From: Eledone cirrhosa
Taxonomy: Eukaryota
DNA: 64,000 nucleotides
Direction of reading: 5' to 3'
Assembly: GCA_964016885.1 (NCBI GenBank)
Contig: OZ024742.1
Location: forward strand, 212,164,001-212,228,000
Shown here: positions 56,377 to 59,300 of the stretch, one piece after another
Layout of the letters: each line of letters opens with the position of its first letter
Numbering within the stretch: position 1 is the stretch's first letter
Program-made: the position numbers and the translations under genes
Notes under the pieces: model-generated
What the model saw: only the letters and a program-made list of their open reading frames with translations
Database searches by the model: none
Told to the model about the DNA's origin: nothing

Positions 56377-59300
56377 TATCGCTGTTTCAGAGCATTTATT
56401 CCAATTTCTAATTTCTGCCGGACCGGCAACCGCTCTTTCAAACCAGTTCCTGTACACAGCTAAGTGTTCTATAAGTCTCTAGCTGTGTCATTCTCGATGA
56501 AAGCACTGGATATGTAGTCCTGACGATTTCTAATAAGAATGAAACGCGTAGATTTACTTCCCTTGCTTTTATCGAGAATCTAATTGTAATACGTGACGTA
56601 TTCTATTCTATAGCGATTGGGTCTTCAAAATGTTTATTATAAACATACAGAATATTTTCGAATATTCTATGTCTATATTCACATATATATCGCTGTTTCA
56701 GAGCATTTATTCCAATTTCTAATTTCTGCCGGACCGGCAACCGCTCTTTCAAACCAGTTCCTGTACACAGCTAAGTGTTCTATAAGTCTCTAGCTGTGTC
56801 ATTCTCGATGAAAGCACTGGATATGTAGTCCTGACGATTTCTAATAAGAATGAAACGCGTAGATTTACTTCCCTTGCTTTTATCGAGAATCTAATTGTAA
56901 TACGTGACGTATTCTATTCTATAGCGATTGGGTCTTCAAAATGTTTATTATAAACATACAGAATATTTTCGAATATTCTATGTCTATATTCACATATATA
57001 TCGCTGTTTCAGAGCATTTATTCCAATTTCTAATTTCTGCCGGACCGGCAACCGCTCTTTCAAACCAGTTCCTGTACACAGCTAAGTGTTCTATAAGTCT
57101 CTAGCTGTGTCATTCTCGATGAAAGCACTGGATATGTAGTCCTGACGATTTCTAATAAGAATGAAACGCGTAGATTTACTTCCCTTGCTTTTATCGAGAA
57201 TCTAATTGTAATACGTGACGTATTCTATTCTATAGCGATTGGGTCTTCAAAATGTTTATTATAAACATACAGAATATTTTCGAATATTCTATGTCTATAT
57301 TCACATATATATCGCTGTTTCAGAGCATTTATTCCAATTTCTAATTTCTGCCGGACCGGCAACCGCTCTTTCAAACCAGTTCCTGTACACAGCTAAGTGT
57401 TCTATAAGTCTCTAGCTGTGTCATTCTCGATGAAAGCACTGGATATGTAGTCCTGACGATTTCTAATAAGAATGAAACGCGTAGATTTACTTCCCTTGCT
57501 TTTATCGAGAATCTAATTGTAATACGTGACGTATTCTATTCTATAGCGATTGGGTCTTCAAAATGTTTATTATAAACATACAGAATATTTTCGAATATTC
57601 TATGTCTATATTCACATATATATCGCTGTTTCAGAGCATTTATTCCAATTTCTAATTTCTGCCGGACCGGCAACCGCTCTTTCAAACCAGTTCCTGTACA
57701 CAGCTAAGTGTTCTATAAGTCTCTAGCTGTGTCATTCTCGATGAAAGCACTGGATATGTAGTCCTGACGATTTCTAATAAGAATGAAACGCGTAGATTTA
57801 CTTCCCTTGCTTTTATCGAGAATCTAATTGTAATACGTGACGTATTCTATTCTATAGCGATTGGGTCTTCAAAATGTTTATTATAAACATACAGAATATT
57901 TTCGAATATTCTATGTCTATATTCACATATATATCGCTGTTTCAGAGCATTTATTCCAATTTCTAATTTCTGCCGGACCGGCAACCGCTCTTTCAAACCA
58001 GTTCCTGTACACAGCTAAGTGTTCTATAAGTCTCTAGCTGTGTCATTCTCGATGAAAGCACTGGATATGTAGTCCTGACGATTTCTAATAAGAATGAAAC
58101 GCGTAGATTTACTTCCCTTGCTTTTATCGAGAATCTAATTGTAATACGTGACGTATTCTATTCTATAGCGATTGGGTCTTCAAAATGTTTATTATAAACA
58201 TACAGAATATTTTCGAATATTCTATGTCTATATTCACATATATATCGCTGTTTCAGAGCATTTATTCCAATTTCTAATTTCTGCCGGACCGGCAACCGCT
58301 CTTTCAAACCAGTTCCTGTACACAGCTAAGTGTTCTATAAGTCTCTAGCTGTGTCATTCTCGATGAAAGCACTGGATATGTAGTCCTGACGATTTCTAAT
58401 AAGAATGAAACGCGTAGATTTACTTCCCTTGCTTTTATCGAGAATCTAATTGTAATACGTGACGTATTCTATTCTATAGCGATTGGGTCTTCAAAATGTT
58501 TATTATAAACATACAGAATATTTTCGAATATTCTATGTCTATATTCACATATATATCGCTGTTTCAGAGCATTTATTCCAATTTCTAATTTCTGCCGGAC
58601 CGGCAACCGCTCTTTCAAACCAGTTCCTGTACACAGCTAAGTGTTCTATAAGTCTCTAGCTGTGTCATTCTCGATGAAAGCACTGGATATGTAGTCCTGA
58701 CGATTTCTAATAAGAATGAAACGCGTAGATTTACTTCCCTTGCTTTTATCGAGAATCTAATTGTAATACGTGACGTATTCTATTCTATAGCGATTGGGTC
58801 TTCAAAATGTTTATTATAAACATACAGAATATTTTCGAATATTCTATGTCTATATTCACATATATATCGCTGTTTCAGAGCATTTATTCCAATTTCTAAT
58901 TTCTGCCGGACCGGCAACCGCTCTTTCAAACCAGTTCCTGTACACAGCTAAGTGTTCTATAAGTCTCTAGCTGTGTCATTCTCGATGAAAGCACTGGATA
59001 TGTAGTCCTGACGATTTCTAATAAGAATGAAACGCGTAGATTTACTTCCCTTGCTTTTATCGAGAATCTAATTGTAATACGTGACGTATTCTATTCTATA
59101 GCGATTGGGTCTTCAAAATGTTTATTATAAACATACAGAATATTTTCGAATATTCTATGTCTATATTCACATATATATCGCTGTTTCAGAGCATTTATTC
59201 CAATTTCTAATTTCTGCCGGACCGGCAACCGCTCTTTCAAACCAGTTCCTGTACACAGCTAAGTGTTCTATAAGTCTCTAGCTGTGTCATTCTCGATGAA

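Follow-up and report, generated by a model that had tools for sequence, protein, structure and literature searches.

Dimer-type hammerhead ribozymes have been known as a class since the work on the newt and on avocado sunblotch viroid (ASBVd). Cervera and de la Peña (2014, PMC4209133) state that most metazoan type I motifs have a helix III of 1–2 bp with a palindromic loop, a design thought to permit cleavage in multimers while monomeric circles stay uncut; the idea of cutting the multimer and sparing the circle is thus already published. In the axolotl, helix III of HHR_Amex1 consists of one base pair with a palindromic tetraloop, every tertiary contact is present, and the monomer reaches 6% cleavage in 1 h. 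HHR_Amex2, with U·U at the foot of helix II, cleaves 22% as a monomer, and both are much more efficient as dimers (PMC7229834). Perreault et al. describe natural U10.1-U11.1 as the best-tolerated mismatch at that pair and palindromic stems III as common (PMC3088659), and most invertebrate motifs are said in a review to form a stable helix III (PMC7761336). Here we analyse a 64,000-nucleotide stretch of Eledone cirrhosa contig OZ024742.1 (the window), which contains an array of 311-bp units, likely a retrozyme without long terminal repeats (non-LTR retrozyme), with a type I hammerhead whose first forward copy lies at 56514..56557. From folding models and the axolotl precedent, we think it probable that this hammerhead is slow as a single unit and much faster as a double hammerhead. 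A strict dimer requirement, and protection of the circle by this hammerhead, would go beyond this prediction.

The 44 nt of the motif read GUAGUC-CUGACGA-U-UUCU-AAUA-AGAA-U-GAA-ACGCGU-A-GAUUUAC, with cleavage predicted between 56550 and 56551 (position labels follow the standard hammerhead numbering; coordinates are in Table 1). The type I core is complete (CUGANGA...GAAA...UH, in a fold where stem I is open and the other two stems are closed), while the G10.1-C11.1 pair, the most conserved after A15.1-U16.1, is replaced by U·U. ACGCGU is self-complementary, with a predicted duplex energy of −7.5 kcal/mol versus +6.0 kcal/mol for the 1-bp hairpin, and so has the 1–2-bp stem III with a self-complementary strand expected of double hammerheads. 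An earlier model-made note (the sequence-only reading) had named the ACGCGU stem III, the GUA triplet and U10.1·U11.1, and our own reading of the sequence confirms all three. Its stem III is indeed palindromic; "loop-less" was loose wording, as the monomer would have one pair and a 4-nt loop. It did not mention that there is an extra U in the 3′ strand of stem I that most public copies lack, that stem I is extended by 14 bp, or that this copy lies under an 816-bp inverted arm.

In the extended stem I, the 14-bp outer helix has pair probabilities of 0.94–1.00 and internal loop I consists of UAU (56511–56513) facing U 56558. The extra U of the window allele lies within the run 56553–56555 of the 3′ strand. 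Because it has both the extended stem I and the UAU/U loop I module, the predicted hammerhead is canonical in size, not minimal. A U seven bases 3′ of the cleavage site (U1.7) is reported to contact an A of loop II (PMC9217987). The sequence module for such a contact is in place, with UAU opposite U1.7 and a loop II that ends in a purine, the contact itself being a sequence-level prediction. The core pattern has 22 matches in the window versus a mean of 0.00 in 100 dinucleotide shuffles, and these matches, as copies of one sequence, count as a single observation. We also wrote, with the motifs already known, a looser type I descriptor; in 100 shuffles it finds on average 0.18 motifs in 55.5 kb, or 0.01 when stem III must be palindromic. 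Rfam gives no match at the gathering threshold in the window, and no hammerhead family is among its 21 matches at E ≤ 10 in 54500–57500.

We folded the double hammerhead on the natural two-unit stretch, nested as in a tandem transcript, with a nearest-neighbour model that includes neither Mg2+ nor tertiary contacts. The active secondary structure costs 10.8 kcal/mol per site over the free ensemble as a single hammerhead and 6.6 kcal/mol as a double one, so that the double fold, which is compatible with the tandem context, beats the single active folds by 4.2 kcal/mol per site. Disrupting the centre of the palindrome in both units lowers this advantage to −0.5 kcal/mol, and a compensatory pair across the units brings it back to 2.7 kcal/mol. 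The sequence-only reading had expected the palindromic stem III to favour cleavage as a dimer and had proposed such mutations as a check; both the HHR_Amex1 precedent and the model advantage back that expectation, and the check, made here in the folding model only, gives the loss and partial recovery it predicts. In addition, stem III strands are self-complementary in all three hammerhead families of the window (ACGCGU, ACUAGU and ACUACGUAGU). Self-complementary free centres in all three would arise by chance with a probability of about 1/256 (1/4 × 1/4 × 1/16), the outer pairs being expected anyway.

A slow single hammerhead could instead be helped by the loop I–loop II contact and a protein chaperone, with a palindrome that mostly consists of standard A-U and C-G pairs and a dimer that is optional. 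The loop I module and the purine-ended loop II are intact and common to monomer-competent motifs, the information in the palindrome is confined to C15.2 and the central GC, and protein-assisted cleavage has been shown for a hammerhead of a Penelope-like element (PLE). However, Amex1 keeps every tertiary contact and its monomer still cleaves poorly, the single fold costs far more than the 1.3–5.3 kcal/mol of motifs with a hairpin stem III, and the self-complementary centres recur in 3/3 window families. An optional dimer therefore seems unlikely to us, and we continue with dimer-favoured cleavage.

What the U·U contributes is a separate question. With G-C placed at 10.1/11.1 in the model, the single and double costs both drop by 2.3 kcal/mol and the dimer advantage stays at 4.2 kcal/mol. 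Because U·U costs the single and double folds alike, it is in this model an attenuator, not a dimer switch. Of what the sequence-only reading had drawn from the mismatch, attenuated cleavage thus stands, and dimer dependence does not: U·U is also the best-tolerated mismatch at this pair, and the Amex2 monomer that carries it still cleaves. The G-C repair mutant that it had suggested would, in the folding model, relieve the cost and leave the preference for the dimer as it was. We accordingly rejected the idea that U·U makes the hammerhead dimer-specific, the same advantage being present with G-C.

The mismatch may act in another way. In the model of the circular monomer, UUUC (56527–56530) pairs with GAAA of the core (56541–56544) with a probability of 0.77–0.88, and stem II forms with a probability of 0.09. 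This predicted decoy helix persists with the public alleles (0.72–0.83), and G-C at 10.1/11.1 abolishes it, stem II rising to 0.71, or to 0.95 with public alleles. The decoy takes up A15.1, the first base of the palindrome, and dimer pairing would therefore compete with it. It is tempting to think of a coupled lock, in which U10.1 makes a decoy that masks the core and A15.1 in monomer and circle, and palindrome pairing frees the core. We find this rather doubtful, because the decoy energy gaps are 1–2 kcal/mol and may vanish with tertiary folding. A literature search found neither a UUUC:GAAA decoy nor a hammerhead with both weak features; most subscription papers and the supplement of the 2020 paper were outside its reach, and we make no claim of absence.

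Table 1. Positions of the hammerhead, the array and related features in the window.
Feature	Positions	Strand	Basis
Type I hammerhead, first forward copy	56514..56557	+	sequence, descriptor scan, pattern search with shuffles
Stem I, 5′ strand	56514-56519	+	
Core CUGACGA	56520-56526	+	
U10.1	56527	+	
Stem II, 4 bp	56528-56531/56536-56539	+	
Loop II, AAUA	56532-56535	+	
U11.1	56540	+	
A15.1-U16.1 around CGCG	56544/56549	+	
Palindrome ACGCGU (1 bp + 4-nt loop in monomer; 6-bp helix III between two units)	56544..56549	+	
A17, triplet GUA	56550	+	
Stem I, 3′ strand	56551-56557	+	
Extended stem I: outer helix of 14 bp (56492-56505/56564-56577), then GGA/UCC helix and internal loop I	56492..56577	+	
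Predicted decoy helix, UUUC with core GAAA	56527..56544	+	pair probabilities
Forward array, 20 head-to-tail 311-bp units, 20 hammerheads	56376..62599	+	
Inverted arm of 2.6 units, identical to the reverse complement of 56528-57343	55561..56376	-	
(TA)n left flank	55518..55562	.	
(TA)n right flank	62590..63960	.	
Unrelated type I hammerhead, palindrome ACUAGU, U10.1-A11.1, loop II AACA, UAU/U loop I	20063..20105 (core 20069)	+	
Unrelated type I hammerhead candidate, U3-A8 core UUGAUAA, palindrome ACUACGUAGU	55196..55283 (core 55201)	+	

Non-LTR retrozymes are defined by units of 150–450 bp with less than 50% G+C and one type I hammerhead each (PMC7229834). The present unit has 311 bp, about 35% G+C and the motif in 20/20 forward units; by that definition the array is likely a non-LTR retrozyme. 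No open reading frame (ORF) of at least 120 aa lies inside the array. The predicted circular monomer is 62% paired at −68.8 kcal/mol (z = −4.1 versus 100 shuffles), in line with the self-paired circle expected of a retrozyme. Public sequencing run X1 holds 503 contigs with many variants of the unit, which suggests a large family.

Retrozymes are proposed to be mobilised by PLEs, which have (TA)n targets, tandem and inverted insertions and 5′-inverted truncated copies (PMC8557442). The (TA)n target and the 5′-inverted truncated copy seen here match this insertion pattern. No PLE ORF was identified in the window, and no reverse transcriptase (RT)-GIY-YIG ORF was seen beside the array. The hammerhead itself is not of the minimal PLE kind, which is characterised by a long helix II, a short helix I and an extra nucleotide after position 9, in the pseudo-LTR (pLTR) of an RT-endonuclease (RT-EN) element: it has a 4-bp stem II, a 6-bp stem I with its extension, and no flanking ORF.

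The forward array is free of mismatches from 56376 to 62590 and comprises 20 units plus 4 nt, both ends falling at the unit's sole ATATATAT tract. At the right end (62590–62599), one mismatch is followed by 8 nt that match (TA)n. The inverted arm adds two complete hammerheads, whose cores lie at 56073 and 55762, and a third without a core, for a total of 22 complete hammerheads with the 20 forward ones, and the copy at 56514..56557 itself overlaps the stretch that this 816-bp arm mirrors. At the junction the bottom strand reads ...GCGATAT/TCTAAT, an imperfect match to ...GACGATT/TCTAAT in the unit (slash, junction), which would fit a fold-back template switch. The arm has a 151-nt offset and continues into a flank of its own. 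Two 5′ truncation points lie at the 5′ base of stem II, the upstream copy of the window's third hammerhead element (54617) starting at G10.1 and the inverted arm (56376) at position 10.2; with n = 2, these could reflect RT stopping at a folded core. We dropped the notion that the end microhomology proves target priming, since the anole PLE primes without homology.

The sequence-only reading had gone further and held the tandem arrangement to be functionally required. A tandem layout arises from rolling-circle copying. It is no evidence of a need for dimers, since coral and mussel retrozymes are tandem and yet their monomers are active (kobs of about 0.8 per min in coral and 0.1 per min in mussel), and we rejected on this ground the step from tandem to dimer-required. 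Nor does the dimer design appear necessary to keep circles intact: in the mussel, circles dominate despite the active monomer, in the axolotl about half of the RNA is linear, and the authors invoke another block in vivo (PMC7229834). Activation also need not be limited to adjacent units, as that reading had supposed, for any two units or two molecules could pair.

Six public runs contain part of the stretch, none of them recorded as RNA, which speaks neither for nor against expression. We compared four of the six, all four in the form of contigs, with one unit at a difference threshold of 3%. Seven differences reach it, six substitutions and one deletion, and four of these lie inside the 44-nt motif: one at position 7, two in loop II (giving AACA or AACG), and the loss of one U from stem I, which yields a perfect 6-bp helix. 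In 4/4 runs there is no variant of at least 3% at the core, U10.1, U11.1 or ACGCGU. Because no variant at this threshold touches U10.1 or U11.1, we count U·U from these sequences as a family trait, not private decay. Both differences at confidently paired bases, one of them at 56499, change G·U to A-U in the + strand RNA. The window alleles at 56466, 56499 and 56619 make up 0–4% of X1 depth and are nevertheless common to all units, which points to one recent template; that all units share rare alleles also argues against homogenisation by polishing. Each of three small runs (X4–X6) shows a single contig of 340 nt whose end leads back to its beginning; a cycle of 310 nt like this is what either a circle or a tandem array would give. 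These runs bear other organism labels, with one low-variation circular contig each, and we do not count them as independent species because their alleles nearly equal the majority of X1.

Several results weigh against a hammerhead that favours dimers, or against the significance we give to it. The double fold lies 2.0–3.3 kcal/mol (ensemble) above two local folds with an open stem III and 10.6–14.6 kcal/mol above the unconstrained two-site ensemble, and is thus not the lowest state. About 20 bp of local stem I must swap partners in the model, a possible kinetic trap. In a transcript that reads through from the left, the cores at 56520, 56831 and 57142 would be locked in the 816-bp duplex and 17 forward copies would remain outside it. 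The minus-strand circle folds as well as the plus strand (z = −4.4). Seven random differences would miss the eight positions formed by U10.1, U11.1 and ACGCGU with P = 0.83, for which reason we rejected the claim that invariance proves selection on U·U, and four motif differences would miss core and palindrome with P of about 0.1. Finally, dimers of minimal PLE hammerheads still cleave slowly, and in the anole PLE the hammerhead needed protein for cleavage and proved dispensable for insertion in vitro.

Some of these points would also fit a crippled window allele, a dead copy of an active family in which the extra U, U·U, the decoy and the pre-formed stem I leave negligible cleavage even in tandem. 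None of the three single-contig runs has the extra U, about half of the X1 depth at that place lacks it too, and it costs 1.3 kcal/mol per site; stem II is only 9% formed in the model, and states more stable than the double fold exist. However, U·U and the 1-bp stem III each permitted cleavage in the axolotl, and the rare alleles shared by 22 copies are most simply explained if the window variant served as a rolling-circle template and had thus been cut and ligated. We consider a dead copy distinctly improbable. Growth of the array as DNA, by unequal crossover or by an extrachromosomal rolling circle, or an inverted arm and copy number that are in part an amplification or assembly artefact, would make the hammerhead a passenger and its tandemness unrelated to cleavage, and is very unlikely in our view: a count of exactly 20 units, and array ends that both fall at the ATATATAT tract, fit recombination there, local satellite expansion of retrozymes has been proposed (10.64898/2026.07.22.740005) and no strand-changing joint is listed in the public contigs compared, but the differences from public copies respect the RNA fold, short-read polishing would pull units to majority alleles and yet they carry rare ones, the arm has its 151-nt offset and its own flank, and 5′-inverted copies are typical of PLE insertions.

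Returning to a hammerhead that works better as a dimer, its life cycle might run as follows. Retrozymes are thought to depend on read-through transcription, and a read-through transcript would, by analogy, span several units. Each unit would first fold its own long stem I and be off, the weak stem II mostly slipping into the UUUC:GAAA decoy and the 1-bp stem III staying open. Two ACGCGU strands could then form a 6-bp helix III as stem I partners swap, so that the core of one unit would cut after the GUA of the other; A15.1 pairing would also break the decoy. The freed 311-nt monomer would hold its ends together in stem I and be ligated, probably by RtcB, whose ligation has been shown in vitro for axolotl and mussel. 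Because it has no partner in cis, the resulting circle would rarely be cut, and it could template a Penelope-like RT, by which identical units would be inserted into (TA)n in large numbers. Of these steps, the folding of the single unit and the pairing of two units are modelled here, whereas transcription, ligation and reverse transcription go by analogy with other systems. The 22 identical copies with rare alleles, the ends at AT tracts and the fold-back arm might even record one such rolling-circle RT event; as a joint claim with the coupled lock, we offer this as a speculation that we would not expect to hold in full.

The second hammerhead of the window (core 20069) sits in a retrozyme-like element of about 1.1 units, about 19883–20370, between (TA)n tracts. 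Its two terminal repeats are slightly diverged, and it is a lone copy without a cis partner. The ACUACGUAGU candidate has a long stem II (57-nt region) and belongs to a partial tandem of 591-bp period, 54617–55523, with 316 identical bases, which stands directly left of the 311-bp array; the free fold of the candidate region does not contain the active structure. The window is otherwise AT-rich, with about 30% G+C outside repeats, and holds fragments of long interspersed nuclear elements (LINEs) with APE endonuclease and RT. One frameshifted LINE, at 9199–11970 on the − strand, has Pfam matches to APE endonuclease, RT and a PHD-like domain, and shorter similar fragments lie at about 8425–8790, 20724, 24233–25261 and 52530, several of them adjoining (TA)n.

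We also searched metagenomes and viral contigs. The pattern of the stem II arms gave 107 metagenome matches, 37 with G-C and one with U·U and no stem I. None of the 107 is a member of the 311-bp family, and the best BLAST matches span only 35 nt of the ribozyme. Eight of the 107 loci (L005, L025, L048, L050, L064, L069, L092 and L097) have the same stem II arms, the UAU/U loop I, a complete fold, G10.1-C11.1 and a hairpin stem III of 4–7 bp, with a monomer cost of 1.3–5.3 kcal/mol. They were taken from 14 rows at 10 loci, leaving out L046 and L077 (no stem III of at least 4 bp) as well as alternative short parses. Self-comparison of these eight loci (625–1425 nt) revealed no tandem unit. Other metagenome type I hammerheads with G-C, a stable stem III and a 5-bp stem I are L006, L014, L027, L063, L086, L096, L104 and L107. 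In viral contigs the 311-bp family pattern had no match, and a general U·U pattern had at least 120, none of those listed combining a stem II of 4 bp with a stem I of the same length.

One more dimer-type hammerhead, in a class already surveyed across animals, would change little. It does allow U10.1·U11.1 to be tested cleanly, as the natural controls share stem II arms and loop I but have G-C and a stable stem III. The decoy, if true, would be one answer to what stops metazoan retrozyme circles from cutting themselves, a question left open in the 2020 paper, and the coupled lock, if true, would mean that an animal retrozyme carries its own conformational switch to protect the circle. Retrozyme circles have been linked to Penelope-type reverse transcription as a proposal, so far indirectly, and the young, perfectly homogeneous array in (TA)n, with its 5′ arm inverted, is well suited to the study of that link.

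How, then, does this locus compare with described systems? Similar to the coral and mussel non-LTR retrozymes (PMC7229834), it has tandem units in the 150–450-bp range with less than 50% G+C, a predicted self-paired circle and no ORF of at least 120 aa in the array; unlike what we predict for the 311-bp unit, those retrozymes cleave as monomers, at the rates given above. With minimal PLE hammerheads (PMC4209133) it shares a short palindromic 15.2-16.2 and loop 3, for which dimer cleavage has been proposed, and with PLEs (PMC8557442) the tandem and inverted insertions in (TA)n. It differs from minimal PLE hammerheads in its 6-bp stem I, 4-bp stem II and loop I module, and in having no extra nucleotide between 9 and 10.1, no G10.1-C11.1 and, as far as seen, no adjacent RT-GIY-YIG ORF. 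The closest relatives in design are found in amphibians. HHR_Amex1 of axolotl Rtz_331, described together with newt satellite 2 (PMC7229834), has the same 1-bp stem III as is predicted for the 311-bp unit, which differs from it in unit length and in U10.1·U11.1 in the same ribozyme. Like HHR_Amex2 of axolotl Rtz_353, a weak monomer and a better dimer, it has U·U at the base of helix II, whereas helix III of HHR_Amex2 has 2 bp and a tetraloop and that of the present motif 1 bp. The hammerhead at 56514..56557 is thus a further predicted case of the known dimer-type class, one that combines an Amex1-type stem III with an Amex2-type U·U.

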